Below are positions 11,890-33,324 of a stretch of 48,959 bases of DNA, piece by piece (the stretch's first letter is position 1; each line of letters starts with the position of its first letter). Under the pieces are notes generated by a model. That model was given only the letters and a program-made list of their open reading frames with translations. It was not told the DNA's origin and made no database searches. Source of the stretch: Clostridia bacterium (GTDB taxonomy: Bacteria > Bacillota > Clostridia > Oscillospirales > CAG-272). The stretch is taken from positions 1 to 48,959 of the forward strand of contig JAKSPY010000003.1 in NCBI GenBank assembly GCA_024404445.1. Direction: 5' to 3'. A program made the position numbers and the translations under genes.

Positions 11890-11896
11890 AGAAAAA

Positions 11897-11937
11897 CGGA
11901 GGCAAAGGCCGCGAGGCAGTTGTCTCCTCATTTTTTT
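11897..11937 (+). terminator. Probable intrinsic terminator
   Basis: GGAGGCAA...TTGTCTCC stem followed by a T-run. Confidence 0.5.
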
Positions 11938-12037
11938 GTCAGGGGGGTGGAAAAATTCACGATTTTGTTGTACAATGTAATGGGTCGTTATAAAAACCCC
12001 GAAGAATGAAAAGCGGTGCAATTTTTTGCGGAAACAG

Positions 12038-12064
12038 TAGCCATTTTCCGCTTTCACTCGTATA
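12038..12064 (+). promoter_or_regulatory. ECF-like promoter motif, copy A
   Basis: TAGCCATTTTCCGCTTTCACTCGTATA; 21/27 identical without gaps to the motif at 26884-26910(-). Confidence 0.65.
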
Positions 12065-12069
12065 AAGAA

Positions 12070-12268
12070 ATGCAAGAGGGAAAAACTCGCGGGGCTGACC
12101 GATGATGAGCTTGCGCAGGCGGTCGGCGGTGTCGATGTTTGCGGAGAGAATGGCGAATATCACACCATTGTGGTCAATGGGCCGATATTCAAAAAAGAAA
12201 TCGAGTTTCGTTATGATCGGGTTTATCACAACGGAAAGAATTGCAGTCTTATTTGCAACATAGAATAA
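12070..12268 (+). pseudogene. Double-glycine leader-peptide precursor with frameshifted or deleted start
   Basis: 12080-12268 reads EKLAGLTDDELAQAVGG|VDVCGENGEYHTIVVNGPIFKKEIEFRYDRVYHNGKNCSLICNIE*. There is no in-frame ATG; ATG 12070 is one base out of frame across GGGAAAAA. Confidence 0.7.
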
Positions 12269-12335
12269 AAACGGTTTTTTGAGCGCAGAGCGTCTGAACA
12301 ACGGGAATGAGATTTGACAAAAGGAGGGTAAGGTC

Positions 12336-13085
12336 GTGAACGCGGTCGGAACGATATACGTCGCGGAGGGTGCGGATATAGACCGCGCCGAGGACACAGC
12401 CGCACGTCTCGGCATCGCGATATGCCGCGGTGAGCCGCAGACAGACGGAAATCCGGTGCTGTATCTGACGGCACAGGGTCTGTCTTTGACAGACGGCAGA
12501 CAGACGATGCGCGGCGACTTTACAGATGATATACCGCGTCTGAGGCGGAACAATCTCGGCGGTGAGCTGTTGGTGCGCGCCGCACGGGTAAAGGCGGAGC
12601 AACCCACTGCGCTTGACGCGACGGCCGGTATGGGTGAGGACTCACTTCTGCTTGCCGCCGCCGGATTTCACGTCACGATGTATGAGTACGACGGCGTGAT
12701 CGCGGAGCTGTTGGACGATACGATGCGCCGCGCCGCGAAGGTGCCCGAACTTGCCGACGCGGTCGGCAGGATGACCCTCGTGCGCGGCGACAGCATAGAG
12801 GCAATGAAAAAAATGACGTCTTCACCGGACGTGATACTGTTGGACCCGATGTTCCCGGAGAGGCAGAAAAGCGCGCTGGTCAAAAAGAAATTCCAGCTTA
12901 TACACCGGTTGGAGCGGCCGTGCGACGTGCAGGACGAAATGCTGAATGCCGCCTTTGCGCTCGCACCGAAAAAGATCGTCATCAAGCGCCCCGCCAAAGG
13001 CGAATTCTTAGCCGGTCGTACCCCCTCGTATTCATTGCGCGGCAAGGCGATACGGTACGATTGCATAGTGCCGTGTGAAAGATAA
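12336..13085 (+). CDS. rsmJ: SAM-dependent methyltransferase, RsmJ/YhiQ-like
   Basis: LDATAGMGEDS, LLDPMFPERQKSALVKK, KKIVIKRP, IRYD; AAGGAGG RBS. Confidence 0.8.
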   Translation: MNAVGTIYVAEGADIDRAEDTAARLGIAICRGEPQTDGNPVLYLTAQGLSLTDGRQTMRGDFTDDIPRLRRNNLGGELLVRAARVKAEQPTALDATAGMGEDSLLLAAAGFHVTMYEYDGVIAELLDDTMRRAAKVPELADAVGRMTLVRGDSIEAMKKMTSSPDVILLDPMFPERQKSALVKKKFQLIHRLERPCDVQDEMLNAAFALAPKKIVIKRPAKGEFLAGRTPSYSLRGKAIRYDCIVPCER

Positions 13086-13129
13086 AACAAAAGCGGTGTG
13101 ATCCGTGATCGGATCACACCGTTGTTTTT
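13084..13129. terminator. Bidirectional terminator between convergent genes
   Basis: CGGTGTGATCCG/CGGATCACACCG stem flanked by A-rich and T-rich tails. Confidence 0.8.
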
Positions 13130-14942
13130 ATGCAAGGGCCTTGCCCGTCGCCTCGTCTTCGTATTGGCGCGTGTAAAGCTGATAATAATATCCCTTTTCC
13201 GCGATCAGATCGGTGTGCTTGCCCTGTTCTATGATCTTGCCGTCCTTGACGACGAGAATGAGGTCCGCGTTCTTGACCGTGGACAGTCTGTGCGCGATAA
13301 CCAACGACGTGCGTCCGCGTATGATCGTGTCGATCGCGGATTGGATCTTTTGCTCCGTTATCGTGTCGACGGAAGCCGTTGCCTCATCCAGAACGAGTAT
13401 CTTCGGATCGGCGAGTATCGCGCGCGCAAATGAGATCAGCTGTTTTTCGCCGGTGGATAACAGGTCGCCGCCCTCGCCGACGTCGCTGTCAAGCCCCTTT
13501 TCCAGATTGGCGATCACGTCGTTCGCGCTGACCAAATCAATGGCGCGAGTTATGTCCGCGTCGGTCGCATTCGGATTGCCGTACAGCAGGTTTTCCCTTA
13601 TCGTACCTGAGAAAAGATGCGGTGTCTGCAAAACGTAGCCGATCGAGGAATGCAACCACAGCTGTGAGCGTTCACGTGCGTCGCGCCCGTCGATGAGCAC
13701 CTGCCCCGTCGTCGGCTCAAAGAAGCGGCAGACCAGATTGACCAGCGTCGATTTCCCTGCGCCCGTTTCGCCGACTATTGCGATATTCGATCCGTACGGA
13801 ATTTTCAGATTGAAATTCTCCAGCACGTATTCATCGCCGTCGGGGTAGCGGAAGCTGACGTCCTTGAACTCTATGTCGCCGCGCAGCTCCTCCCAATTTT
13901 CCCTTTTGGGATCAAAGCTGTCGCCGTATTTCTCTATTACATCGGGGGTGTCTTTGACGTCGGACTCCGTTTCGACAAGCCTTGTAAAGCGTTCGATATT
14001 GACCTGTGTGGTAATGAGATCGGAAATGGCGTCGATCAGCCAACGCACGGGCTCCATCATGCCCTCGGCGTACGACATGAATACCGAGAACGTGCCTATT
14101 TCGCTTTCCGCTATGTATCCGCCGCGCCACAATACTATCGCGAGTGCCAGCGAGGACGCAAAATGCATCGTCGATGCGAAAAGTCCGCGCAGACGCGCCG
14201 CATGAACTGTCTTTGACTTCATTTTTTTCGTATCGTCGCGGAATTCGCGTTCGATCTTATCCTCTACGACCAGCGTCTTTATCGTCTTCGCGCCGGTGAT
14301 GCCCTCATTGAAATCACCCGTGATCGTAGAGTTTATCTCTCTGATCTCGCGGTTTACGCGGACGAGCTTGCCCTGGAATATTGCGAACAGCACCGATATG
14401 ATCGGCACGATGCACAGCACCATCAGCGTCAGCTTCGCGTTCTTTATGAACATGACCGCGACGACGCCGACCAGGTACGACGTATGCCATACGAAATCCA
14501 TTATCGTCCACGATGCCAATGATCCGATACGCGACGTGTCGCTCATGATCCTCGCGTGGATATATCCGACGCTGTTCTGATTGAAATATGAGAACGACAG
14601 CGTTTGCAGGTGGTTGAATGCCGTGTTGCGCAGGTCCTTATTGATGCAGACCTCGTTGCGGAATGCGAACGAACAAGAGATGTAATTGACCGTACCCGAC
14701 AGCAGGACCGTCGCTACGATCAATATGATGAATACGATCAGCGTATCTGTCGTGCGATCGCCTATGTAGTGATTCAGCGCGTATTCGCGGAACAGCGGCA
14801 GAATGATATCCGTCAGACTTCCTATCAGACCGCAGATGATCATTGCTATGATCATGTTGCGGTATTTTTTCATATACGGTATTATTTTACCGATGCCGAA
14901 AAACGGCAGGGAAGCGGTTTTATCTTTGTTTTCCGTGCTCAT
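13128..14942 (-). CDS. Heterodimeric ABC exporter subunit 2 (TMD+NBD)
   Basis: Start MSTENK at 14942 (GGAGG RBS, ATGA overlap); GETGAGKST, degenerate signature LSTGE, ILVLDEATASVD. Confidence 0.9.
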   Translation of the reverse strand: MSTENKDKTASLPFFGIGKIIPYMKKYRNMIIAMIICGLIGSLTDIILPLFREYALNHYIGDRTTDTLIVFIILIVATVLLSGTVNYISCSFAFRNEVCINKDLRNTAFNHLQTLSFSYFNQNSVGYIHARIMSDTSRIGSLASWTIMDFVWHTSYLVGVVAVMFIKNAKLTLMVLCIVPIISVLFAIFQGKLVRVNREIREINSTITGDFNEGITGAKTIKTLVVEDKIEREFRDDTKKMKSKTVHAARLRGLFASTMHFASSLALAIVLWRGGYIAESEIGTFSVFMSYAEGMMEPVRWLIDAISDLITTQVNIERFTRLVETESDVKDTPDVIEKYGDSFDPKRENWEELRGDIEFKDVSFRYPDGDEYVLENFNLKIPYGSNIAIVGETGAGKSTLVNLVCRFFEPTTGQVLIDGRDARERSQLWLHSSIGYVLQTPHLFSGTIRENLLYGNPNATDADITRAIDLVSANDVIANLEKGLDSDVGEGGDLLSTGEKQLISFARAILADPKILVLDEATASVDTITEQKIQSAIDTIIRGRTSLVIAHRLSTVKNADLILVVKDGKIIEQGKHTDLIAEKGYYYQLYTRQYEDEATGKALA

Positions 14943-16786
14943 ACCGACGCCTCCTCTGCTGACAGCGACTGTATATTGTAGATCCTCTGATATATGCCGC
15001 CTGCCTTTTTCAGCTGTTCGTGTGTGCCCTGCTCGGCTATTTTGCCGTGATCGAGGACTATTATATTGTCTGCATGGCACAGCGTGGTGATACGGTGGGA
15101 GATCAGTATGATCGTCGCCGTACCGAAGCGTGCCTGCAACGACGCGCGTATTTTTGCGTCTGTTTCGGTATCGACCGCAGACAACGAGTCGTCGAAAATC
15201 ATTATCGGCGTATTGCCGATCAACGTGCGTGCTATCGCGGTGCGCTGCTTCTGCCCGCCGGACAGGGTCACGCCGCGTTCCCCGACGAAAGTATCGTAGC
15301 CCTTTGTAAATGAGCTAACCGTTTCGTCAAGGCACGCCGCCTGCGCCGCCTCGCGTATCTTATCCATATCCTTGCCGTCCTCCAGCGCGATCGCGATGTT
15401 ATCGGAGATCGAGCGCGAGAACAGAAACGGCTCTTGCAATACCATACCGATGTTTTTGCGCAGATGCGATGCCTTTATATCGCGTATATCGACGCCGCCG
15501 ATCGTTATCGAGCCGTTGCCTTCGGGTATCTCATACATTCTGTCCAGCAGTGACATAAGTGTCGATTTTCCGCAACCCGTACCGCCCAGAATTCCCAACG
15601 TGGTGCCGGATTTGATCGTAAAATTGACGTCAAACAGCTTCTGTGGGCAACCCTCATAACCGAAATTCACGTGATTGAATGAGATATCGCCGGTCATATC
15701 CGGCTCACAGGCATCCGGCCTGTCATGCTCCGGCTCGGATTCCATTATGTATTGGATCCTGTCTATCGAAACGCCGGCCTTGCTCATTTCGGATATCATT
15801 CTGCCCAGCTGACGAACGGGCCATACCAAAAGACTGTTATACGAAACGAACGAAATATATTCGCCCGGCGTCATTTTGTCGTTTATGCAGAACAAAACTC
15901 CGCATACGACGACCAGCACCATCTGCAAGCCGACGATGATATCGGACGTGGACCAGAAACGAGCCATCGTTTTGGCCATGTGTACCCACAGGCCCGTATA
16001 GTATTCGTTATGCTTCTCAAAGCGGTCGCGCTCGTATCTTTCTCTGCCGAACGCGCGCACCACGCGCACACCGGTCAGATTTTCCTGTGCCATCGCCGAG
16101 AGTATACCCTCGTTTTCGTCGCATTTCGTAAATCCGCTCGCTATTTTGTTATGGAACAGCAAGGAATATACGAGTATTACCGGCATCGGCGCTATCGCTA
16201 TGAGCGTCAGCCACGGGTTCATCGACAGCATGAATACGATCGCCAGCGTCAGCATGATGATTATCCTGAATATTGACGTCAATTGCTCGGAAACGAAGTT
16301 TTTCATCGTGTCGATATCGGACGTACAACGCTGGATAATATCGCCGGTCTGGTTTTTCCTGTGCCAGCCGAACGGCAGTGACTCAATGTGCGAAAACAGC
16401 CGGTCGCGCATCGTTTTGACGAGCGTTTCGGATGCCGCCGTGTTGGAAACGCGGAACAGGTACTGCGACAGGACGCGAACCGCGGCGACTATGACTATGG
16501 CCGTTGCCATCAGCCACAAATGCCTGCCGAGGTACTCAAACCCGCCGAAGCTATCGACGATCTTCATGACGGTGTCGGAAAATTTCGGCTCTTTGCCGCC
16601 TATGGCGTTATCGACAGCGGCTCTGATTATCTGCGGGTTTATCATATCGCACAGCGACATGATGCCGGTACAGAGGATGCTCGCGATGAACAAAAGGCGA
16701 CTGCCCTTCAAAAATTGCCAGACAAGCGCGGCCTTGCGCCTGAACTGTTCTTTTTTTTGTTTTTTTTCTTCTTTTGTCTTTTCCAT
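14939..16786 (-). CDS. Heterodimeric ABC exporter subunit 1 (TMD+NBD)
   Basis: GGTGCGKST, LSGGQ, degenerate Walker B IMIFDD; no N-terminal C39 peptidase domain. Confidence 0.9.
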   Translation of the reverse strand: MEKTKEEKKQKKEQFRRKAALVWQFLKGSRLLFIASILCTGIMSLCDMINPQIIRAAVDNAIGGKEPKFSDTVMKIVDSFGGFEYLGRHLWLMATAIVIVAAVRVLSQYLFRVSNTAASETLVKTMRDRLFSHIESLPFGWHRKNQTGDIIQRCTSDIDTMKNFVSEQLTSIFRIIIMLTLAIVFMLSMNPWLTLIAIAPMPVILVYSLLFHNKIASGFTKCDENEGILSAMAQENLTGVRVVRAFGRERYERDRFEKHNEYYTGLWVHMAKTMARFWSTSDIIVGLQMVLVVVCGVLFCINDKMTPGEYISFVSYNSLLVWPVRQLGRMISEMSKAGVSIDRIQYIMESEPEHDRPDACEPDMTGDISFNHVNFGYEGCPQKLFDVNFTIKSGTTLGILGGTGCGKSTLMSLLDRMYEIPEGNGSITIGGVDIRDIKASHLRKNIGMVLQEPFLFSRSISDNIAIALEDGKDMDKIREAAQAACLDETVSSFTKGYDTFVGERGVTLSGGQKQRTAIARTLIGNTPIMIFDDSLSAVDTETDAKIRASLQARFGTATIILISHRITTLCHADNIIVLDHGKIAEQGTHEQLKKAGGIYQRIYNIQSLSAEEASV

Positions 16787-16875
16787 TTTTTCTTTCCTGC
16801 CGACGGAGTAACGGTCCGACGGTAAACTGTTGTTTGTGTGTATGATGAGAGACCTGTCAAGGGCAATATACGAAA

Positions 16876-16904
16876 ACTATATCATAATATGCGCGCGCAG
16901 TCAA
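16876..16904 (-). promoter_or_regulatory. SigA promoter for the ABC exporter
   Basis: Minus strand TTGACT-N17-TATAGT with extended TG. Confidence 0.65.
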
Positions 16905-16919
16905 TCGTCGGCAGGCTTT

Positions 16920-16936
16920 TGTAACACAAATGTAAC
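16920..16936. promoter_or_regulatory. OmpR/PhoB-family (WalR-like) direct-repeat box
   Basis: TGTAAC-ACAAA-TGTAAC fits TGTWAH-N5-TGTWAH. Confidence 0.45.
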
Positions 16937-16974
16937 GATATCCCGATAAAACTCCGAATATATCCGAATAAGGA

Positions 16975-17003
16975 TTGTCTTTTGACTATTTATGTGATAT
17001 AAT
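16975..17003 (+). promoter_or_regulatory. SigA promoter for the ymdB operon
   Basis: TTGTCT-N17-TATAAT with extended TG. Confidence 0.65.
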
Positions 17004-17033
17004 GTGTATTGAATAAATTCACCGGAGGACCGT

Positions 17034-17807
17034 GTGTACAGAGTTCTGTTTTTAGGCGACGTCAATGGACCGCAGGCGGCCGATTATGTATCATCGCATC
17101 TGTGGCAGTACCGTAATGACAATAAAATAGATTTCGTGGTGGCAAATGCCGAAAACTGCGCGCAGGGAAACGGCATCGACCGTGAGCAGACGGGTAAGCT
17201 GTTGGCGGGCGGATGCGACATACTGACGACGGGAAATCACGTATTCAAAAAGATGATGGCAAAGGATATGCTGGACGAAAACGATGACATAATTCGTCCC
17301 GCAAACTATCCGCCGGAGGTGCCCGGTGTCGGATATACGATCAGACGCACGGGAAAATTTTCCATCCTCGTCATCAACGTGCTGGGCGTCGTGATGATGG
17401 AGCCGCTGGACAATCCCTTCCGCACGGTCGATAAGATACTTTCCGCTACGGCGGGGAAATACGATATATCGTTGCTGGACCTGCACGCGGAGACCACGTC
17501 GGAAAAGAACGCGATGGCACATTACCTTGACGGGCGCGTAACGATGATATGCGGCACACATACGCACGTGCCGACGGCGGATGAACGCATATTGCCGAAA
17601 GGCACCGCGTACATCACGGATGCCGGTATGTGCGGACCGGATGAGTCGGTGCTGGGGCTGACGCCGGAGTGCATAATAGAAAAACTGACGAAAAATATGC
17701 CGGTACGGTTTATTCTGTCCGATAATCCCGTTACGGCGCACGGGCTTATGACCGATATCGACGAAACGACCAAAAAGGCCGTATATACTCAGACAATAGC
17801 ATTTTAA
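17034..17807 (+). CDS. ymdB: YmdB-like metallophosphoesterase (TIGR00282 type)
   Basis: LFLGDV, ANAEN, TTGNH, RPANYP, DLHAETTSEK, GTHTHVPTAD, TDAGMCG. Confidence 0.9.
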   Translation: MYRVLFLGDVNGPQAADYVSSHLWQYRNDNKIDFVVANAENCAQGNGIDREQTGKLLAGGCDILTTGNHVFKKMMAKDMLDENDDIIRPANYPPEVPGVGYTIRRTGKFSILVINVLGVVMMEPLDNPFRTVDKILSATAGKYDISLLDLHAETTSEKNAMAHYLDGRVTMICGTHTHVPTADERILPKGTAYITDAGMCGPDESVLGLTPECIIEKLTKNMPVRFILSDNPVTAHGLMTDIDETTKKAVYTQTIAF

Positions 17808-17818
17808 CGGAGGCAATT

Positions 17819-18952
17819 ATGGCAAAGATACTGCATACCGCTGATATCCATCTCGACCCACCGTCCTCGCTGTTGGACGTGCAAAAGGCGCAGGTCAGAA
17901 TAAACGAATTGCGCGTCACGTTCACGTCGCTGATGATGTACGCGAAGACGGAGCATTTTGATCTGGTGATAATTTCCGGCGACTTGTTCGACTGCGGATT
18001 TGTGACAAAGGAAACGATGGAGCTGATCGTATCGCAGTTTGAGCAGAATCCCGACTGCAAATTCGTCATAGCACCCGGAAATCACGATCCGATAGGACCG
18101 AAAAGCCCGTACAAAAAGGTCCAATTCCCGAATAACGTGTATATTTTCGACTCGGATGAGCTGTCGTGCTTCCGCTTTGACGATATCGGCATCGACGTTT
18201 ACGGATACGCGTTCTGTGACAGCAAGATGGAAACCAATCCCCTGCGCGAGGTTAAGCTCAATCTGAATTCCGAGCGCATAAATATCCTTGCCGCGCACGC
18301 CGACATGACGTCTGCCACGTCAGACAATTGTCCGATGACGGTCGCCGATATCGCGGCAAGCGGATTTGACTATGTGGCACTCGGTCACATCCACGCCGGC
18401 GGCGACGTAAAGCTGGCGGGTCACACATATTACGCGTACAGCGGCTGTCTGGAGGGGCGTTCGTTCGACGAATGCGGAATAAAGGGGGCCATCGTCTGCA
18501 AGACTACGACATCGCGCTCCGGTGCCCGGCTGGATTTCGCGCTCAAACGCTTCTCGCACAGAAGATATGAAAAATTCGACGTGGACATCACCGCCGCCAC
18601 GTCTACCAACGAGGCAATAGAAAAGGCCCGCAGGGTACTGACCGATCACGGCGTCGGCTCTGACACCGTACTGCGGCTCACATTCACCGGCAGCGTATCT
18701 GAGGAATTTGCCCTTGACGCGAGAAAGCTGACGGCACAGACGTTCGGCGTTTACTACCTTGAATACTATGATAAGACTATGCCCACGCTGAATTATAAGG
18801 ACCTGCTGAACGATATTTCGATACGCGGCGCGTTCTTCCGTGAGCTGTGGCCGAAGATGAAAAGCGAGGACGAAAAGGAGCGCAGAACGGCGATAGAGGC
18901 ATTCCGCTACGGTATGGCGGCACTGTCCGGCTCTGACATCGTCGATTATTGA
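17819..18952 (+). CDS. Mre11/SbcD-like DNA repair exonuclease (YhaO-like)
   Basis: LHTADIHLD, SGDLFD, PGNHD, DYVALGHIH, YSGCLEGRSFDE. Confidence 0.88.
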   Translation: MAKILHTADIHLDPPSSLLDVQKAQVRINELRVTFTSLMMYAKTEHFDLVIISGDLFDCGFVTKETMELIVSQFEQNPDCKFVIAPGNHDPIGPKSPYKKVQFPNNVYIFDSDELSCFRFDDIGIDVYGYAFCDSKMETNPLREVKLNLNSERINILAAHADMTSATSDNCPMTVADIAASGFDYVALGHIHAGGDVKLAGHTYYAYSGCLEGRSFDECGIKGAIVCKTTTSRSGARLDFALKRFSHRRYEKFDVDITAATSTNEAIEKARRVLTDHGVGSDTVLRLTFTGSVSEEFALDARKLTAQTFGVYYLEYYDKTMPTLNYKDLLNDISIRGAFFRELWPKMKSEDEKERRTAIEAFRYGMAALSGSDIVDY

Positions 18953-18979
18953 ACAATCTAATTTTTTGGGGGATATATC

Positions 18980-20044
18980 ATGACGAGAATAGAAAAATTC
19001 ATTGCCGCGATGCCGGAGGGCATTGACGCGTTCATCACCACCGATGAGAAGACCAGACTGTATCTGACGAAATTTCCGGCGACTGACGGCACGGTATTCG
19101 TAACGCGCCGCGGCGGAACGCTGTATGCGGACTTTCGTTATATTGAGGCGGCGGAAAAGCAGGCAGTCGGCGTAAAGGTCGTGATGCCGTCGGGCAGAGT
19201 CAGCACGGAGATCAAGGCCATCATCGTCGATGAGAACGTAAAGACAGTCGCATTTGAGCAGAACAAACTCACCGTCGCCGACCTCGACAGACTGAAGTCT
19301 GTCTACCCTGAGGTCACATTCGTGCCGATCGGCAACGTGATCACGAAGCTGTGTGAGTATAAGGACGACGAGGAGCTGGCCGCCATCAGAGCCGCGCAGG
19401 ATATAACCGATAAGGCATTTGCCGAAACGGTCGCGCTCATAACCCCGGAAATGACGGAGATCGAGGTCGCCGCGGAGCTGGAGTACCGCATGAAGCGACT
19501 CGGCGCAACTTGCCCCAGCTTTGAAACGATCGCGGTCAGCGGCACAAATTCCAGCCGTCCGCACGGCGTACCGTGCGGAGAAAAATTGCAGAAGGGCTTT
19601 CTGACGATGGATTTCGGTTGCGTATATAACGGATATTGCTCCGATATGACGCGCACGGTCTGCATCGGCAACCCGACGGATGAGATGAAGGACGTGTACA
19701 ACACGGTGCTGAAGGCTCAGCTTGCGGGCATCGCGGCGGCAGTCGCCGGTGTCAGATGCTCATTCGTCGATAAGACGGCACGCGACATCATCGACAATGC
19801 CGGTTATCGCGGCACGTTCGGTCACAGCCTCGGTCACGGTGTGGGTCTGTATATCCATGAGGAGCCGCGCTTCTCATCCGCCGCGCCGGATGATATGATC
19901 CTCGGTGTCGGTCATGTCGTAACGGTAGAGCCGGGAATATATCTCAAGGGACGCTTCGGCGTGCGTATAGAGGATATGATACAGGTAACAAAGGAGGGCA
20001 CTGTCGATATCACTCACAGCCCCAAAGAACTTATCATTATTTAA
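18980..20044 (+). CDS. Xaa-Pro aminopeptidase (M24B)
   Basis: DFGCVYNGYCSDMTRT, HSLGHGVGLYIHE, TVEPGIY, GVRIED. Confidence 0.93.
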   Translation: MTRIEKFIAAMPEGIDAFITTDEKTRLYLTKFPATDGTVFVTRRGGTLYADFRYIEAAEKQAVGVKVVMPSGRVSTEIKAIIVDENVKTVAFEQNKLTVADLDRLKSVYPEVTFVPIGNVITKLCEYKDDEELAAIRAAQDITDKAFAETVALITPEMTEIEVAAELEYRMKRLGATCPSFETIAVSGTNSSRPHGVPCGEKLQKGFLTMDFGCVYNGYCSDMTRTVCIGNPTDEMKDVYNTVLKAQLAGIAAAVAGVRCSFVDKTARDIIDNAGYRGTFGHSLGHGVGLYIHEEPRFSSAAPDDMILGVGHVVTVEPGIYLKGRFGVRIEDMIQVTKEGTVDITHSPKELIII

Positions 20045-20053
20045 GGAGGGCCT

Positions 20054-22672
20054 ATGAAACTTTACGATCTCAGTGTTAATTATCTGACGGACGATTGCGC
20101 TGTCGATACATTGCCGCATTTCTCGTACAAGGTCGGCGATTTCAAAAACGGCGATAAGCAGAAAACCGCACGCATACGTGTATACCGCGTCAGCGTCTCG
20201 GATGAAAATCTCGTGTGGGATACAGGCGACGTCACATCAGAGCAGAAGCTGCATATCGCTTACGGCGGGCAGGTGCCGGAGCCTGTCACGAAGTACGTGT
20301 GGACGGTTGACGTCACGTCGGTGCTCGGCGACAGTGCGTGCGCTGAGGCAAAATTCGTTACCGGCAAGCTCGGTGAGCGTTGGCAGGGCAAATGGATAAG
20401 CGCGAGATACGTCAACCGCGAGGGCGACGCCTTTGGCGCGGTTTACCTCAGGAAGACCTTCAATGAGGAGAAAACACCCGTCAGTGCTTACCTTTCCATC
20501 TGCGGCCTCGGATATTTCGAAAGCTATGTCAACGGCAAAAAGACGGGCAACGACACGCTGTCGCCCGCGTTTACCGATTTTTCAAAGACGGATATGTACC
20601 TTACATACGACGTCACCTCTATGATAAGGGCGGGCAAGAACGCGCTTGCCGTCGTGCTCGGTAACGGCTGGTATAACTGCTTTGCCGAGGACCCGTGGAA
20701 TACGCGCGCGGCAACGTGGCGCCATTGGCCTAAACTGATCTGTGAGCTGAAAATGACGTTTGCCGACGGCACGGTCGAAACCGTCACCTCCGACACCTCG
20801 TGGCGCGGCAGTCGCGGCCCGATCATATTCAACGGAATCAGAAACGGTGAGCATTACGACGCGCGTCTGGAATTGGGAAATTGGAAGGATTACGATTATG
20901 ATGACACCGCGTGGGATGGCACAAAGATAGTGAAGAGCCCCGGCGGCCTGCTTGAGGCTCAGCCCATGCAGCCGATCAGGGTATATAAGACCTTCTTGCC
21001 GTCAAAAATACGTAAGGGCGCCAACGGTTGGATAGTCGAATTCCCGCAGAATATGGCGGGCAGATGCCGTTATACATTGCGCGGCGCCGCTGATACGGAG
21101 ATCACGATGAGATACTCCGACGTTCTCACCGATGACGGCGAGGTAGATCAGACGCCTATCGGCGGATTTGTGCGTTCAAACGGCTTCCAGACCGATAAAT
21201 ACATAAAAAAGAGCGACGGGCCCGAAAATTGGGAGCCGATATTCGTATATCACGGCTTTCAGTACGTTGAGATCACCGGCATCGATTATGAGCCGTCGCC
21301 CGATGAGATCACGGCTGTCGCACTATGCACCGACGTCGGCAATATAGGCAAATTCAGCTGCTCTGATGAGCTTCTGAATAAGGTCCAGCACCTGTGCCGT
21401 TGGGCGACGATATCGAATATGCATTCCGTCCCGACAGATTGCCCGCACCGCGAAAAGAACGGTTGGACGGGCGATACCGCACTGTCATGCGAGCAGATGC
21501 TGATCAACTTCGGCACGCGCGCTTTCCTTTCAAAATGGAGCAAGGATATGCGCACGGCACAGCGTCCCGCCGGTCAGATACCGTGCGTGGTGCCGTCCAC
21601 GGGCTGGGGTTATTACGGTTTGATGGGCCCCGATTGGTCGAGCGCTCTCATCACCGTGCCGTACAATATCTGGCTGTATAACGGCGACGAGGATATACTG
21701 AAGATCAACTATGACGCCATCCGCCGCAACTGTGATTTCATGGAGGGGATGACGGAGGATTATACCCTGCATTACGGCACCGGCGATTGGTGCTGGCCGT
21801 TTGAGGGACCCGCGATCAGCAAAAATATGGGCGCATACAAATGCCCCGTAGAGGTCAGTGATACCGGATTTTTCTATAACGCCGCAAAGACGGTGGCGAA
21901 AATCGCCGCTCTGCTCGGTAAGGACGACGACGTGGAGTATTATTCCGCGCTCGCGCAGAAGATCAAGGCGGTGTTCCGCGAAAAATTCTACGATAAATCG
22001 CAGAATCTCGTGAAGGGCGACTGTCAGACGGCGACGGGCGTCATGCTATATTTCGGACTTTATGAGCCGGATGAGAAGCAGGGCCTTATCGACAAGCTGA
22101 TCGAACAGGTGCGCCGCAACGGAAATCACCTTGATTTCGGTGTTCTCGGCAATAAGTTCGTCATGCACTCGCTCGGCGCGAGCGGAAACGGCAACGTGGG
22201 CTATGATATGATAGCACAGCGCACGTTCCCCGGATGCCAGCGCTGGATAGAGCTGGGCGCGACGACGCTGTGGGAATGTTGGAACGGCGGCGGCTCACAT
22301 AACCACCATATGTTCTCTGATCTTTCGGCGTTCTTATATAAATACGTCGGCGGCATTTCGCCCGATGAGAACGAGCCCGGATTCAAGAATACCATTCTCC
22401 GTCCCGCGGTCAGCTGTGGCATGGAGAGCGCGTCGGCATCTCATGACAGTATGTACGGTAAGGTCGAGTGCTATTGGGCTAACCGCGACGGTAAGCTGAC
22501 CGTGAACGTCAAGGTGCCGTTCGGTTGCACGGCTACGCTTTACCTGCCGGAGAAATATGCGACTACGCTGACGGTCGATGAAGTCAAGGCTATCGAAAGC
22601 TTTTCATCCGGCTCACGCAACGGTGAATTCTATCTGACTGTCCCCAGCGGCACGTATAGCTTTGCGGGATGA
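20054..22672 (+). CDS. Alpha-L-rhamnosidase (GH78)
   Basis: GEHYDAR, YHGFQYVEI, PTDCPHREKNGWTGD, GATTLWECW, SHNHHMF. Confidence 0.9.
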   Translation: MKLYDLSVNYLTDDCAVDTLPHFSYKVGDFKNGDKQKTARIRVYRVSVSDENLVWDTGDVTSEQKLHIAYGGQVPEPVTKYVWTVDVTSVLGDSACAEAKFVTGKLGERWQGKWISARYVNREGDAFGAVYLRKTFNEEKTPVSAYLSICGLGYFESYVNGKKTGNDTLSPAFTDFSKTDMYLTYDVTSMIRAGKNALAVVLGNGWYNCFAEDPWNTRAATWRHWPKLICELKMTFADGTVETVTSDTSWRGSRGPIIFNGIRNGEHYDARLELGNWKDYDYDDTAWDGTKIVKSPGGLLEAQPMQPIRVYKTFLPSKIRKGANGWIVEFPQNMAGRCRYTLRGAADTEITMRYSDVLTDDGEVDQTPIGGFVRSNGFQTDKYIKKSDGPENWEPIFVYHGFQYVEITGIDYEPSPDEITAVALCTDVGNIGKFSCSDELLNKVQHLCRWATISNMHSVPTDCPHREKNGWTGDTALSCEQMLINFGTRAFLSKWSKDMRTAQRPAGQIPCVVPSTGWGYYGLMGPDWSSALITVPYNIWLYNGDEDILKINYDAIRRNCDFMEGMTEDYTLHYGTGDWCWPFEGPAISKNMGAYKCPVEVSDTGFFYNAAKTVAKIAALLGKDDDVEYYSALAQKIKAVFREKFYDKSQNLVKGDCQTATGVMLYFGLYEPDEKQGLIDKLIEQVRRNGNHLDFGVLGNKFVMHSLGASGNGNVGYDMIAQRTFPGCQRWIELGATTLWECWNGGGSHNHHMFSDLSAFLYKYVGGISPDENEPGFKNTILRPAVSCGMESASASHDSMYGKVECYWANRDGKLTVNVKVPFGCTATLYLPEKYATTLTVDEVKAIESFSSGSRNGEFYLTVPSGTYSFAG

Positions 22673-22685
22673 CGGTCTGACACTG

Positions 22686-22766
22686 AAAATAAACCGGGAA
22701 AGACGCGTCTTCCCCGGTTTTTCTCATGCTAATGTAACGCCTCCCGCGGTCGCGGGAGGCGTAATT
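22686..22766. terminator. Two back-to-back terminator hairpins between the convergent rhamnosidase gene and pheT
   Basis: AAACCGGG...CCCGGTTTTT and ACGCCTCCCGCG/CGCGGGAGGCGT stems. Confidence 0.75.
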
Positions 22767-22767
22767 C

Positions 22768-25194
22768 TTATTTTCTGATCGTGATACCGAGCTTTGCCTC
22801 AACATTTGCAAGTATCTTTTCGGCGAAGTTGTCGGCCTCCTCGACTGTCAGCGTACGGTCTGAAGCGCGGAGAGAGACAGAGAACGAAACACTCTTTTTG
22901 CCCTCGCCAAGCTGTGCGCCGCGATAAATGTCAAAAAGCGTGATGCTTTCTATGACCTTGCCCGCCTTGCTCTGACGCATTGCGGACTCAATGGTGCCGA
23001 CCTCGATCGTCTCATCGCACACGAATGAGAAATCACGCGTCGTGGCAGGGAATTTCGGCATGGGCGTATATTTTTTCACCATATCCGAAAGGTCGTAGAT
23101 ATCCTCAAGGTCCAGCTCGGCGATATAGACCTCGGCGTCAAACGCATAGTTGCCGGCGACCGTGGGATGCAGCTGACCGAACTTGCCGACGCACTTGTCG
23201 CCCACCGTGACGGCGGCACATCTGCCGGGGTGATACGTCGGATCGTTCCTGACCGCGACGTATGAAGCGTCGATGCCGGCGTATGCCATGATATTCTCTA
23301 TGATTCCCTTGAGAGTATAGAAATCGCCTGCCTTATACAGACCGATGCTGATATGACGGCGCTCGTCAGGCAATGAGCCCTCCAGCCCGTGGATATTCGT
23401 CACCACGCCATCGCGCGGCAGGAACACCTTGCCGATCTCATACAGCGCGACCCTCGGATTTGAACGCGAGCAGTTCGTCTGCAAAACCTCCAACAGCGTC
23501 GGGATCAGCGTCGTGCGGATCGTCTTTGTGTCATCGCCGAACGGATTCATGATCTCGACCGACTGACGGCGTTCGTCATCCGGAGCCATACCGCACTTGT
23601 CGTACAGACGCGCGCTCATAAACGAGAACGTGTAGATCTCGTCAAGTCCGGCGCCGACGAGAAGCGAATGTACATCGTCGGTGAAGCTCTGCTTCGGCGT
23701 CAGTCCGCCCTGCGTCATAGCCGAAACTATTGAGGATGACGTGACCTTATTATAGCCGTACATTCTAACGACCTCCTCGGCGACGTCGTTCATGCAACGC
23801 ACGTCGTCGCGGTATGACGGAACGTAGATCGTGTCGCCGTCAACGCGGAATTCAAGGGAGGTCAGCATCGCGACCATCTCATCGCGCGAAAGATTGAAGC
23901 CGAGGAAAGCGTTGATCCTGTCCGGCTCGAATTCTACCGTGGCGACAGGCTTTTTCACGGGATATACGTCTATGATACCGCTGACTACGTCGCCCGCACC
24001 CAGCAGATTGATCAGCTCACACGCGCGCTCCAACGCCGGAAGAGTGTTTTCGCTGTCAAGACCTTTTTCAAATCTTGACGATGCCTCGGTGCGCATACCC
24101 AGCTTCTTTGCGGTGATCCTGACCGATGAACCCAAGAACATTGCCGCTTCGAATACGACGGTCTTTGTGCTTTCTGTGATCTCGCTGTTTTCGCCGCCCA
24201 TGACTCCGGCAATGCCGACAGGCTTCTTGCCGTCTGCGATGACCAGCATATCGCTTTCCAGTTCACGCTCCTGGCTGTCCAGCGTGCGGAATATTTCCTT
24301 GTCGCCGGCGGTGCGGACGATGATCTGATTGCCGTCGATGCACTCATAGTCAAACGCGTGCATCGGTTGACCGTATTCGATCATCACGTAATTGGTGATA
24401 TCGACGATATTATTTATCGGGCGGACGCCTGCCGCGCGCAGACGCATACGCATCCACAGAGGCGACGGGGCGATTTTCACGTTTTTGACGACCCTTGCCG
24501 TATAGCGGAAGCACTTTTCGCTGTCGTCTATTCTGACTGAAATGTATTTATTGATGTCGTCGCCGGACTCCTTGACTGAGGGCGTCGGGATCGTCAGCTT
24601 TCTGCCGAATGTCGCGGATGCCTCGCGCGCCAGACCGATGACGGAAAGGCAGTCGGGGCGGTTTGGTGTGATCTCATAGTCGATAACGTCATCGTTGAGC
24701 ATGAGCACGTCCTTGATATCATCGCCGGGCTTTGCGTCCATGCCGTTGAGTATGAGTATGCCGTCGGTGGCGGCGTCGGGCATATCGTGCGTCGTCAGAC
24801 CGAGCTCCTCGATCGAACAGAACATACCCTCTGAAACGACGCCGCGCAGCTTGCCCGTCTTGATTTCCGTGCCGCCGTGCAGCTTTGTCACGCGCTTTTC
24901 GTTTTGCGGGCAATAACATACAGGCACGATCGCACCCTCAAATACGTTCTTTGCCGCCGTGACGATCTGCAGTGTCTTTTCGCCGCAATTGACCTGACAA
25001 ACGACAAGCTTTTCGGCGTCTGGGTGCTTTTCGATCTTTTCGATCAGACCTACCCGCACGTTGTCGATCTCATCGCCCGTGTTTTCATACGTTTCGACCT
25101 TTGAGCCGGTGTCGGTCATCCTGTCGCAGAATTCCTTGATATCTATATCGGTCGTGTTGACAAAATCCGTCAGCCAATTTCTTGATAATACCAT
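22768..25194 (-). CDS. pheT: Phenylalanine--tRNA ligase beta subunit
   Basis: HPDAEKL, EITPNRPDCLS, NNIVDITNY, RTEASSRFEKG, C-terminal FDX-ACB domain. Confidence 0.98.
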   Translation of the reverse strand: MVLSRNWLTDFVNTTDIDIKEFCDRMTDTGSKVETYENTGDEIDNVRVGLIEKIEKHPDAEKLVVCQVNCGEKTLQIVTAAKNVFEGAIVPVCYCPQNEKRVTKLHGGTEIKTGKLRGVVSEGMFCSIEELGLTTHDMPDAATDGILILNGMDAKPGDDIKDVLMLNDDVIDYEITPNRPDCLSVIGLAREASATFGRKLTIPTPSVKESGDDINKYISVRIDDSEKCFRYTARVVKNVKIAPSPLWMRMRLRAAGVRPINNIVDITNYVMIEYGQPMHAFDYECIDGNQIIVRTAGDKEIFRTLDSQERELESDMLVIADGKKPVGIAGVMGGENSEITESTKTVVFEAAMFLGSSVRITAKKLGMRTEASSRFEKGLDSENTLPALERACELINLLGAGDVVSGIIDVYPVKKPVATVEFEPDRINAFLGFNLSRDEMVAMLTSLEFRVDGDTIYVPSYRDDVRCMNDVAEEVVRMYGYNKVTSSSIVSAMTQGGLTPKQSFTDDVHSLLVGAGLDEIYTFSFMSARLYDKCGMAPDDERRQSVEIMNPFGDDTKTIRTTLIPTLLEVLQTNCSRSNPRVALYEIGKVFLPRDGVVTNIHGLEGSLPDERRHISIGLYKAGDFYTLKGIIENIMAYAGIDASYVAVRNDPTYHPGRCAAVTVGDKCVGKFGQLHPTVAGNYAFDAEVYIAELDLEDIYDLSDMVKKYTPMPKFPATTRDFSFVCDETIEVGTIESAMRQSKAGKVIESITLFDIYRGAQLGEGKKSVSFSVSLRASDRTLTVEEADNFAEKILANVEAKLGITIRK

Positions 25195-25209
25195 TTACAC
25201 TACCTCCAA

Positions 25210-26220
25210 TCAGAACTGAGAGAGGAATCTCTCATCATTTTCATACAGCAGGCGCATATCGCTGATGCCGAGGCGTATCATCGCGATACGCTCGATGCCC
25301 ATGCCGAATGCAAAGCCTGAGTATTCACGCGGGTCGATATTGCAGTTTTCCAGCACGAACGGATGCACCATGCCGCAACCCAATATCTCTATCCAGCCCT
25401 CTCCCTTGCACAGACGGCAACCCTTGCCGCCGCAGACGAAGCACGAAACGTCAACCTCGGCCGACGGCTCAGTGAACGGGAAGTGGTGCGGACGGAAACG
25501 GATCTTTGTCTGCTCACCGAACATTCTCTTTGCAAAAAGCTCCAATACGCCCTTCAGATCGCTCATCGTGATGCCCTTATCGACGACAAGGCCTTCAACC
25601 TGGTGGAATATCGGCGAATGAGATGCGTCGGCGGGATCGGCGCGGTAAACGCGGCCGGGCGAGATAACGCGTATCGGCGGGCGCGTCTGCTCCATTGTGC
25701 GCACCTGAACAGGAGAAGTCTGTGAACGCAACAGTATATTGTCCGTGATGTAAAACGTATCCTGCGTGTCGCGCGCGGGGTGATTTTTAGGCAGGTTGAG
25801 CGCCTCAAAGTTATAGTAGTCGTATTCGACCTCCGGACCCTCAGCTACGGTGAAGCCCAGCCCCACGAATATATCGCGCAGAGTTTTTTCCGTTTGTGCC
25901 AACGGGTGACGGTGCCCCACGGGTATCTTTTTGCCCGGGACCGTTACATCCAGCGCCTCACTGCGCAGTTTGCGTTCTGTTTCCTGTGCCTTGAGCGCCG
26001 TCATTTTCTCATTGATCGCGTTTTCGATCACGGTGCGGACGTCATTGACCAGCTGGCCTATCTGCGGTCTTTCCTCCGGGGCTACCTGTCCCATGCCGCG
26101 CAGAAGCTGTGTCAGTTCGCCTTTTTTGCCGAGATATTTGACCTTGACGGCCTCAATATCGACGGCATTTTTCAGCTCTTCCAATGCGGAAAGCCTGACC
26201 TTTTCGATTTGTTCTTTCAT
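25210..26220 (-). CDS. pheS: Phenylalanine--tRNA ligase alpha subunit
   Basis: [39 protein letters not shown]. Confidence 0.98.
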
Positions 26221-26283
26221 TGTCTGCTCCTTTTATATAATCTGTATTTTTTCCGATGTCAGATCACGGAGGTGCGGCGGAGA

Positions 26284-26517
26284 AAATAAAAAACGCCCCT
26301 TACTGTTACGCAAGGGGCGAAGCGAACTCCGTGTTACCACCCATATTCCCGACGAAAGTCGGACACTCACGCCCGTAACGGAGGCAAACCGTCGCGCACT
26401 TTCATACGCGAAGCTCCAAAGTGAAAGGCGCGATACCTATACATATCACCGCTTACAGCCCGCGACGGTGATTCTCTGGATGTTCTGTGGTATTTTGCCG
26501 CTTTTTCATCGCTTTAT
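26284..26517 (-). ncRNA. T-box riboswitch (Phe)
   Basis: Minus strand: AGCGATGAA 5' motif, AGAGA box, GGCTGTAAG loop, UUC specifier (26423-26425), T-box AATATGGGTGGTAACACGG, terminator CGCCCCTT...AAGGGGCG-TTTTTT; upstream promoter TTGCAA...TATACT. Confidence 0.92.
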
Positions 26518-26661
26518 GCGGTCAGTATATCACGGCGACCGCAATTTTGCAAGACCTTTTTGACCATTCCGCATGAAATTTGTTATAGCTTTCATCCGGG
26601 GTCAACAGTAAAATCTGTCGTATATTTCTTTCATCAACGGATCGCCGCCCGTAGGGAGGCA

Positions 26662-26850
26662 TCAGTGCGAGCCATCTCCGTTATTCCGGCTTATATCCTC
26701 ATTCTCCTCTCTCCTCTGTTCGTCTGCCGCATGCGAGCATTGCTGACCGCCCACGACCTGCGCGAGCTTATCGTCCGGCAGTTCGGCGAACTTTTCGTCG
26801 GGATTTCTGAACTCTTCTTTGATTTTGGTCGGCTCTGTCTTTGTTTTCAC
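26662..26850 (-). CDS. Small double-glycine leader-peptide precursor (bacteriocin/RiPP-like)
   Basis: MKTKTEPTKIKEEFRNPDEKFAELPDDKLAQVVGG|QQCSHAADEQRREENEDISRNNGDGSH; AGGGGG RBS before GTG; leader 12/17 identical to the 12080 copy. Confidence 0.7.
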   Translation of the reverse strand: MKTKTEPTKIKEEFRNPDEKFAELPDDKLAQVVGGQQCSHAADEQRREENEDISRNNGDGSH

Positions 26851-26883
26851 AGTGTTATCCCCCTGTTTTGTTTTTCACACATT

Positions 26884-26910
26884 TATACGAATGAAATTGA
26901 GGAATGGCTA
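26884..26910 (-). promoter_or_regulatory. ECF-like promoter motif, copy B
   Basis: Minus strand TAGCCATTCCTCAATTTCATTCGTATA, ending 33 nt upstream of the leader-peptide start. Confidence 0.65.
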
Positions 26911-26947
26911 ATGGATTTATGGAAAAATCGAATTTTTCTGTTATGCC

Positions 26948-27085
26948 GGGCTATGATCGTTTGCCCAAAAAGCTGTCATTCCGAGCTGTGCGAGGAATCT
27001 GCTTCGTATTCGGTCGCATGACCTGTCTGTGATCGAACATTCTATCAGATTCTTCGGCACAAGTGCCTCAGAATGGCAGGGAAGT
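26948..27085 (+). repeat. REP-like palindromic repeat dimer, copy 2
   Basis: CTGTCATTCCGAGC...GCGAGGAATCT [spacer] AGATTCTTCGGC...GCCTCAGAATGGCAG inverted units. Confidence 0.85.
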
Positions 27086-32781: not shown

Positions 32782-32844
32782 TCCGGTTGATACGGTTTTA
32801 CCGCCTGACGTACGATATCACCATAAAGAAAGTTGACCGCAAAT

Positions 32845-33324
32845 ATGACAGACTATAAGCAGGAAGATATTTATACCGAATATCATGACAAGGTCTTCGG
32901 ATATATTCACAACCGCATCGCGTCATGGCACGATGCGGAGGATATCTGCGCCGACGTTTTCGTAAAGGTGTTTTCACATCTCGACAGCTTTGACGAAACG
33001 AAGGCTTCACTGTCCACGTGGATATATACCATCACGCGCAACACACTTCGCGACCGATACCGCACGACACACGTTTCCGATCAGCTGGATGACAGCTCGT
33101 CGGGGGATGATGATTTTGTTGACGATATATGCAAAAGTGAGTCACTGCAACAGTTGGCGGACGCGCTGGAAAAGTTGGACGACCGTCAACGCGATATCGT
33201 CATATTGCATTATTATTCCGGTAAGACGCTGTTGCAGATAGCGGATCATATGTCACTGTCGTACAGTTATGTAAAGGTACTGCACAATAAAGCTTTGGCA
33301 AACCTGAAGGTATTATTCGGTTGA
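32845..33324 (+). CDS. ECF (group 4) sigma-70 factor with no adjacent anti-sigma
   Basis: Region 2 DAEDICADVF...LSTWIYTITRN; region 4 LDDRQRDIVILHYYSGKTLLQIADHM. Confidence 0.9.
   Translation: MTDYKQEDIYTEYHDKVFGYIHNRIASWHDAEDICADVFVKVFSHLDSFDETKASLSTWIYTITRNTLRDRYRTTHVSDQLDDSSSGDDDFVDDICKSESLQQLADALEKLDDRQRDIVILHYYSGKTLLQIADHMSLSYSYVKVLHNKALANLKVLFG

Follow-up and report, generated by a model that had tools for sequence, protein, structure and literature searches.

Two small loci with double-glycine (GG) leader sequences lie on opposite strands of a 48,959-bp stretch of Clostridia bacterium DNA, each of them preceded by the same promoter-like block, and in this study we analysed these loci, the block and the system to which they may belong. 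The whole stretch, hereafter the window, is contig C58 of the genome G000 (1,596,080 bp, 134 contigs, 50.7% G+C, 91.9% complete). G000 denotes the genome under study and G003, G015 and so on its relatives; C numbers are contigs of G000, L numbers are loci, and X2, X3, X7 and X9 are assembled contigs of public runs from other studies. A first reading of the letters alone (the original prediction) had taken both loci for self-contained promoter-leader-core cassettes under one alternative sigma factor, processed in trans. It proved half right: the single alternative sigma factor and the processing in trans were supported, and the leader-specific, self-contained cassettes were not.

Two loci behind one promoter motif

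Locus 1 has an esterase gene and an RsmJ-like methyltransferase gene (at 12336) as neighbours, and locus 2 an amino-acid ATP-binding cassette (ABC) transporter and pheST. The features on which the analysis rests are the following, with scores from the position matrix of the next section.

12024-12067 (+): locus 1 promoter; A/T-rich upstream element, -35 GTAGCC, extended -10 CTCGTATAAA, spacer 15, matrix score 48.8
12068-12079 (+): remnant of a 5' untranslated region, similar to the A-rich stretch that follows the C125 and C114 promoters and passing directly into mid-leader; no ribosome-binding site, no in-frame start
12080-12130 (+): partial GG leader, last 17 codons, with Leu-12, Glu-8, Leu-7, Ala-4 and the GG end
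12128-12268 (+): Dph6-like (PF01902) remnant, last 46 codons and stop, beginning at the second Gly codon of GG
26662-26850 (-): locus 2 gene, 62 residues, GTG start with GGGGGA seven bases upstream
26746-26850 (-): locus 2 GG leader, 35 residues, of which residues 19-35 are EKFAELPDDKLAQVVGG
26665-26745 (-): locus 2 core, 27 residues, acidic, one Cys
26848-27038 (no strand): 191-bp segment absent from some contigs; includes promoter, ribosome-binding site and GTG start of locus 2
26881-26924 (-): locus 2 promoter; A/T upstream element, -35 TTAGCC, extended -10 TTCGTATAAA, spacer 15, matrix score 47.1
32845-33324 (+): extracytoplasmic function (ECF)-type sigma factor gene, candidate reader of the motif, 6 kb away; alternative TTG start at 32833

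The two 27-mers were found where the original prediction had placed them, at 12038-12064 (+), reading TAGCCATT...TCGTATA, and at 26884-26910 (-); they are identical at 21 of 27 positions and T-tracts are present 5' of both. The leader ends behaved as described as well, since 12 of the 17 residues encoded at 12080-12130, EKLAGLTDDELAQAVGG, are identical to those of locus 2 and the sequences are fully divergent after GG. At the DNA level the two leader ends share 39 of 51 bases, and by our own count many of the differences fall at third codon positions. Passages of the LahT study (PMC6363468) give as criteria of a C39 leader an end of GG, GA or GS and hydrophobic residues at -4, -7 and -12. A search of the window against Rfam at the gathering threshold returned 0 matches, so that neither locus is explained by a known RNA.

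Locus 2 is an intact gene. Its leader carries Val-4, Leu-7, Leu-12 and the GG end, and with its GTG start and ribosome-binding site it qualifies as a translatable precursor. The curated leader model TIGR01847 reached 15.1 bits against a cut-off of 15.7, with the whole 15-residue model covered. The gene is polymorphic among strains: a joint from 26847 to 27039, with 62 letters on its shorter side and no shared letters, occurs in X2 (depth 7.17) and X7 (depth 4.7), contigs of two other studies, and the 191-bp segment is retained in an X3 contig. A search for repeats at the edges of the indel gave nothing convincing. By our own reading the joined form has no canonical in-frame start, which makes the deletion the derived, disabling state. 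Locus 2 is dispensable, as promoter and start are absent from the contigs of two studies.

Locus 1 is not the open reading frame (ORF) of a working cassette that the original prediction had assumed: it lacks a start codon, and what was taken for its core comes from the 3' end of a Dph6-like gene. The ORF list holds no in-frame ATG, GTG or TTG between the stop at 12038-12040 and the leader, while the ATG at 12070 lies in another frame, off by one base, and meets a stop after 11 codons, so that the locus does not qualify as a translatable precursor; TIGR01847 gave no match to it either. We infer that locus 1 is untranslated. The core matched PF01902 (diphthamide synthase-like) with E 1.3e-7 (31.8 bits, cut-off 23.2) over profile positions 170-209 of 219 only. 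Three full-length proteins of 216 residues, found in other assemblies, align to it with 83-91% identity, in their last 46 residues only. Homology to the full-length proteins begins exactly at the second Gly of GG, before which the intact proteins differ, and the alignment to the solved homolog PH1257 starts at that same Gly. A chance likeness of the locus 1 leader to a Dph6-like protein was rejected on these differences before the shared Gly and on the 39 of 51 leader bases shared with locus 2. As judged from these alignments, the locus 1 core is a fragment of a Dph6-like ATP pyrophosphatase and not a member of that family. No further PF01902 match was detected in G000 or 20 relatives and no small homologs of the locus 1 product were found. 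A DNA search of the neighbourhood in 30 relatives gave short conserved pieces only, so that synteny is unreadable at the DNA level.

Two deletions would account for this arrangement. The untranslated remnant resembles those of C125 and C114 up to a GAAAA word, after which it continues as mid-leader, and the locus 2 leader has GAAAAG at that place. A first deletion at this short shared word would have taken out the ribosome-binding site together with the start codon and half of the leader, its first half, and a second one would have brought GG up against the 3' part of a Dph6-like gene next to it. No terminator-like site was detected between the relic and the methyltransferase gene at 12336, and we speculate that the promoter may now feed that gene.

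That both loci are nevertheless working, self-contained cassettes inserted between housekeeping genes and yielding secreted peptides has some points in its favour. At each locus the promoter stands before a leader end that has Leu-12 and Leu-7, with a residue at -4 that is small or hydrophobic, both loci lie between housekeeping genes, and break points among strains fall at the edges of the promoter region, namely the 191-bp indel at locus 2 and, at locus 1, the divergence of an X3 contig just before 12033, five bases 5' of the -35, where at least 255 unrelated letters precede the match. In addition, locus 1 is unchanged in a contig of another study that spans 11800-14588 with indels only at 13105 and 13109 and none near 12070-12100; the same contig implies that the start-less state is not an assembly slip. 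Against these points stand the missing canonical start and the Dph6-like core of locus 1, whose homology sets in at GG, the indel joint without terminal repeats or shared letters, and two results of the next section, that the sites share the promoter only and that this promoter also serves eight genes without a GG leader. On balance we consider working cassettes at both loci quite unlikely.

A bounded promoter family and the genes behind it

The pattern TAGCCA-N14-TCGTATA, for which the original prediction had asked for a whole-genome scan, occurs four times in 1.596 Mb, where about 0.05 would be expected by chance (our own estimate, 13 fixed bases, both strands). A position matrix of 44 columns, built from 12 distinct seed sites of G000, found 14 sites at 41.9-59.0 in the genome, followed by 21.5, 15.5, 14.7 and 13.9, and the top scores in three shuffled genomes were 12.4, 11.8 and 13.0; as the matrix was trained on the same sites, its scores are inflated and the score gap alone serves as evidence. 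A two-block scan for GTAGCC and TCGTATAAA, with one mismatch per block and spacers of 11-17 allowed, returned 20 matches; a spacer of exactly 15 accounts for 12 of these, where three shuffles had 0, 3 and 3. On C18 there is a fifteenth site, with one extra base in its spacer (16). The motif family of G000 is therefore a sharply bounded set of 15 promoter-like sites. A looser regular expression was dropped, its 273 matches being mostly meaningless. The pattern scan of 40 relatives yielded mostly background (0-6 per genome in the controls), and its follow-up was selective, covering matches with a T-rich spacer only.

Anchored comparison of the sites demonstrated about 50 conserved nucleotides, from the A/T-rich upstream element to the -10, with unrelated flanks; longer stretches are common only to recent duplicates, of which there are two pairs (C56 with C113, and the C69 copies with each other). 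That conservation ends at the promoter argues for a promoter and not a mobile repeat, and with nothing beyond it common to the sites the self-contained cassettes of the original prediction lack the mark of a mobile element. Best conserved are the two blocks at the rigid spacer of 15 and an invariant CGT just before TATAA, and the distance from motif to start codon is 29-35 nucleotides at most sites. This fixed spacing and the CGT in the -10 bear out a dedicated promoter with ECF-like architecture. ECF promoters usually carry AAC in the -35, and the -35 of this motif is without AAC.

A conserved block of this kind might also be a conventional transcription-factor site at a promoter of the housekeeping sigma factor, given that the upstream element (GAAAAATT..TTTTC) is partly palindromic at several sites and that TATAAA within the -10 looks like a housekeeping -10. 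However, a scan with the sigma-70 consensus had no match at either motif of the window, the two blocks at a rigid spacer with an invariant CGT speak against it, and the block recurs 5' of a sigma factor operon in many genera, which together make this explanation very unlikely.

The 15 sites precede seven GG-leader genes, six genes of Sec-signal proteins, one PrsW-like protease operon and one gene of a small conserved protein. The GG-leader genes comprise loci 1 and 2, a tandem pair of paralogs on C69 (105 and 120 residues) and three members on C56 and C113, with a CxxC...CxxC cargo in two of these three. The other genes under the motif are listed below.

C125: Sec-signal protein, 457 residues
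C46: Sec-signal protein with choline-binding repeats, 217 residues
C76: two Sec-signal proteins, 427 and 740 residues
C18 (L020 1524-2000): Sec-signal protein with a Hcp/TssD-like domain (PF17642, E 4.3e-19), 158 residues
C114: Sec-signal protein, truncated by the contig end
C35 (L019 2618-3966): operon of a multi-pass membrane protein and a PrsW-family protease
C47: small partner protein, 74 residues

A regulon of this composition would drive GG-leader small proteins and Sec-exported surface proteins, along with a PrsW-like protease operon and the small partner described below. The Sec signal and Hcp/TssD-like domain of the C18 product are an odd pairing for a Gram-positive gut bacterium. A second copy of the pair of PrsW protease and multi-pass membrane protein, the latter without a family, lies on C47 (L016 10942-12215), divergent from the C39 exporter operon, and in G035 (L063 10426-11269) the motif stands 5' of a small membrane protein followed by the same multi-pass protein.

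GG-leader genes are dispersed across the genome, as the original prediction had proposed: about 16 such ORFs were recognised in G000 (our own reading of 24 regular-expression matches plus one from the ORF list), with cargoes of 27-90 residues, many of them hydrophilic small proteins. The motif is not specific to them, since only seven of its 15 sites precede GG-leader genes and eight of the roughly 16 GG-leader genes have no motif within 170 nucleotides. This partial co-occurrence shows that promoter and leader are not one unit. Five of the eight motif-less genes belong to a second leader class starting with MKTKEEL, which has a long helical leader ending in LTDEELxQVVGG (C24 62-286, C85 9585-9974, C128 3047-3379, C130 1715-2014) and is presumably under other control, as far as the upstream regions suggest.

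On C113 (L015 1-3081) and C56 (L018 3125-3376) lies an array of at least four paralogous GG-leader genes, each with the motif and with a contig break inside the array; the CxxC...CxxC cargoes are zinc-ribbon-like with weak Pfam hints, and two of the C113 paralogs passed TIGR01847 (16.5 and 17.9 bits). On the 3' side of the array on C113 follow an IS3-type transposase fragment and then a second ECF sigma factor gene with a membrane partner of 255 residues. In G003, which is of the same genus, the motif drives an 88-residue GG-leader peptide (L034, C71 of G003, 184-) with a Cys-rich leader start and cargo, so the peptide set of the regulon differs between species of the genus.

A candidate sigma factor, its partner and the C39 exporter

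The product of 32833-33324 is a sigma factor of 163 residues with regions 2 and 4 only (Sigma70_r2 63.2 bits, Sigma70_r4 47.2 bits, TIGR02937 97.4 bits with a cut-off of 42.9). It is 46% identical to the exporter-linked sigma factor of G003 (E 3.8e-47), to which the next best protein of G000 is 26% identical. The motif was traced to relatives, with the same small protein and the motif together in G003, G015 and G022. Among eight relatives with this sigma factor (G003, G015, G022, G084, G159, G099, G143 and G109), a small ORF adjoins the sigma gene in all eight, lying 5' of it with a 4-nucleotide overlap in seven and 3' of it in G003. The pair sits after ABC exporter genes in six of the eight, and in five the motif stands just 5' of the small ORF (core matrix scores 21.6-32.8); in G003 it follows the sigma gene and precedes the small ORF only.

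A wider scan by sigma factor alignment, with one genome per species, gave 80 loci; some of its genomes are also among those with G handles, so that the two sets overlap. The 36 closest loci (L077-L112) are records of Oscillospiraceae, Lachnospiraceae, Butyrivibrio and Ruminococcaceae, and a small ORF precedes the sigma gene in 23 of them, compared with none of four more distant loci. Within 75 nucleotides upstream, the -10 word CGTAT[ACT][AT] was present at 12 of these 23 loci; of 5000 random windows, 137 had it. In a set of 201 genomes from the order, seven carried the sigma factor (E <= 1e-25) and 16 an exporter above cut-off, with six genomes having both, one the sigma factor alone, ten the exporter alone and 184 neither; the association is overstated by these counts because relatives are not independent. 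Cultured carriers of the module include Butyrivibrio sp. FCS014 (L086) and Lachnospiraceae bacterium 1XD21-87 (L085).

A promoter that recurs 5' of the operon of a sigma factor itself is a classic mark of an ECF sigma target. The claim of one alternative sigma factor thereby gains support, with an ECF-type factor that has the motif at its own operon in relatives and an ortholog in the window, and we infer that the window sigma factor reads the motif. A competing candidate is the other ECF sigma factor of G000, on C113 (L015 1767-2324), which is a bona fide ECF type with Sigma70_r2 and r4_2 matches and lies right after three tandem motif-bearing GG-leader genes. Yet it has no motif upstream, the transposase fragment lies between the array and its gene, its identity to the exporter-linked sigma family is a mere 26%, and it is 5' of the operon of the other sigma factor that the motif is kept across genera. 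We regard the C113 factor as an unlikely reader.

Taken together, it is likely that the shared 27-mer is a promoter of the ECF-type sigma factor of the window, that the regulon comprises about 15 promoters, and that loci 1 and 2 are peripheral, decaying members of it. Several observations weigh against this reading. First, the motif is missing 5' of the sigma/small-ORF pair in three of the eight relatives and the -10 word is missing within 75 nucleotides at 11 of the 23 further loci. Second, in G000 itself no motif precedes the sigma gene (no further site of the window scores above 12), the gene is separated from the partner protein and exporter genes, and autoregulation is suggested by the upstream sequences of relatives only, not of G000; the assembly is moreover 92% complete and split over its 134 contigs. 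The position of the C113 sigma factor directly behind the motif-bearing array belongs here as well. Third, as regards decay, an in-frame CTG at 12095 could in principle start a leader of 11 residues at locus 1, and other strains may have a substitution that creates a start there. Over locus 1 the RNA contigs of X9 have a depth of 0, and over locus 2 a depth of 0.4, values that are uninformative on expression.

On C47 the gene of the G000 partner protein (74 residues) follows immediately on the exporter genes and is itself preceded by the motif. The protein is soluble, about 70 residues long and without a membrane segment, it matched no Pfam or NCBIfam family, and its cluster in a protein atlas (495 members) is unnamed. 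Sigma factor and partner of 61-78 residues would form a module, which in gut Clostridia usually lies directly behind an ABC exporter of the nitrile hydratase leader peptide (NHLP) type with a C39 domain. With only the partner under the motif, G000 would have a negative feedback loop, if the partner restrains the sigma factor.

Models of the sigma-partner complex, in which each chain was given as a 9-row alignment, reached ipSAE interface scores of 0.68, 0.38 and 0.65 (median 0.65) against 0.01 for the best control, with a partner pLDDT of at least 51 and at least 65% of contacts shared between runs; of 80 solved complexes, 58 attain this mark, and of 110 mismatched pairs, 2 do. The prediction supports binding of the partner to the sigma factor. 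In the modelled interface, partner residues 1-31 face sigma regions 2 and 4, and residues 32-74 are not part of it. The C-terminal half contains an Ala-Ala-Gly that is invariant in 30 of 30 distinct partner sequences. With Ala-Ala set at -2/-1, position -4 is Val, Leu, Ile or Phe in 30 of 30, -7 is Leu in 23, -8 is Asp or Glu in 21 and -12 is Leu or Ile in 25; according to passages of the LahT study, the leader positions that contact the C39 groove are the ones matched here (PMC6363468).

We tentatively raise the possibility, which we hold to be the less probable case, that the partner acts as an anti-sigma factor and that its free C-terminal half is a mimic of a C39 leader, so that the exporter controls the sigma factor. 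In one variant the C39 peptidase would cut the partner and leave a C-terminal ...Val-x-Ala-Ala. ClpXP tags are exposed on RseA and RsiW, and an end of Val-x-Ala-Ala would resemble them. In the other variant the idle exporter would sequester or expel the partner, as the flagellar machine does with FlgM. Under either one, substrate genes would fire only with the exporter ready, and substrates would compete with the inhibitor.

A search for C39 peptidases in G000 gave one match, on C47 (PF03412, 112.7 bits in a frame of 728 residues). This exporter scored 940.4 bits with TIGR03796 (cut-off 853.3), the second ABC protein 3' of it came just under the cut-off of TIGR03797 (692.4 against 709.4 bits), and a HlyD-like stub of 139 residues 5' of it had 34.5 bits (cut-off 156.2); in the NHLP export trio only one of three curated cut-offs was thus passed in G000. 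As this sole C39 exporter found is on another contig than the window loci, processing in trans, as originally proposed, is supported, and the C47 exporter presumably cuts and exports the GG-leader products. The original prediction had reported no modifying enzyme beside the loci, and in the rest of G000 no SPASM and no YcaO gene was found either; Nif11 (PF07862) gave no match in G000 and there were no NHLP or Nif11 precursors. A LanC-like search had no match in G000 and is uninformative because the control genomes stayed silent too. Since SPASM, YcaO and Nif11 matches are lacking, the GG peptides are probably unmodified and handled in trans.

Near the module of some relatives there are further genes. 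A SpoIIE-type phosphatase and an anti-sigma-kinase-like HATPase_c_2 protein lie beside it in G015 (L060 1913-4824) and G022 (L062 14888-17727), where the phosphatase has a 5TM-LYT sensor domain (Pfam-tested in G015). In G159 (L072) phosphatase and HATPase_c_2 are fused in one protein of 396 residues (Pfam-tested), with a homologous ORF in G084 (L071), and the G000 ortholog of the HATPase_c_2 protein stands alone on C78 (L157 1501-1908). An alternative control of the module by these proteins is possible.

Two other places of the window were recorded. About 0.9 kb from locus 1, at 13128-16786 (-), two adjoining half-transporter genes encode ABC_membrane and ABC_tran domains without a C39 domain; their ORFs as listed overlap by about 140 nucleotides and one start is probably miscalled. 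Upstream of pheS/pheT, at 26294-26552 (-), a sigma-70-like promoter with a TG extension is accompanied by a strong terminator-like hairpin with a T run behind its 10 pairs, of which 7 are G-C; from its sequence this looks like an attenuator or T-box leader, yet it had no Rfam match at the gathering threshold.

Significance and comparison with known systems

The usual description of GG-leader peptides and their C39 exporters is that of compact operons controlled by quorum sensing. The interest of the present case lies in the apparent wiring of a C39 route to a dedicated ECF-type sigma factor whose predicted regulon is scattered round a small gut-commensal genome, and it is carried by the module of sigma factor, partner and exporter more than by the two decaying loci, which illustrate how such genes decay by deletions at short shared words and by fusion to the tail of a neighbour. 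Leader mimicry, if true, would be a simple way of matching the production of exported peptides to exporter capacity. Our literature search found no published sigma factor or anti-sigma partner for NHLP-type systems, nor this pairing of sigma factor, partner and exporter. The main text of the ECF reclassification (PMC7826278) mentions neither bacteriocins nor C39. The wiring therefore appears new: a C39 exporter linked to an ECF-type sigma factor with its small soluble partner, and a predicted regulon that mixes ABC- and Sec-exported products.

First, the leaders resemble those of the ComC/ComAB, class II bacteriocin, LahT and PCAT1 systems in the GG end, Leu-12, an acidic or polar -8, Leu-7 and Val or Ala at -4, as far as passages of PMC6363468 describe them. 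As in such systems one C39-domain exporter is present; unlike in them, the genes of G000 are scattered and not beside the exporter, and many cargoes are hydrophilic small proteins, some with CxxC...CxxC, in contrast to the cationic or hydrophobic bacteriocins. Those systems are under two-component control, whereas transcription in G000 apparently depends on a dedicated ECF-type sigma factor.

Second, NHLP/Nif11 systems, which are marked by the trio TIGR03794/03796/03797, share with G000 the passed TIGR03796 and the combination of many precursors with one exporter. Relatives also have long-leader peptides, and in G015 a radical SAM/SPASM enzyme lies beside the exporter. G000 differs in having no Nif11, SPASM or YcaO match and in the second ABC protein and HlyD-like stub, which score below their cut-offs; a further difference is that the long-leader peptides of relatives get no higher than 17.5-18.2 bits with Pfam Nif11 (cut-off 23.8), in two of four tested. 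Prochlorosins are a case of many dispersed precursors served by one machinery.

Third, the ECF sigma/anti-sigma pairs sigmaW-RsiW-PrsW and sigmaE-RseA are released by regulated proteolysis. The module is similar to them in its two-domain sigma factor, in a partner that is predicted to sit between regions 2 and 4, in a target promoter that in five of eight relatives stands 5' of the pair or of its small ORF, and in a PrsW protease both in the regulon and beside the exporter. Unlike RsiW and RseA, the partner is soluble and of no known family, is encoded 5' of the sigma gene and has a leader-like C-terminal half. Finally, a sigma factor inhibitor that would bear the recognition signal of the very secretion machine whose substrates are under that sigma factor resembles the export checkpoint of FlgM and sigma-28 in idea only, with an ABC exporter in place of the flagellar type III system and proteins that are unrelated.

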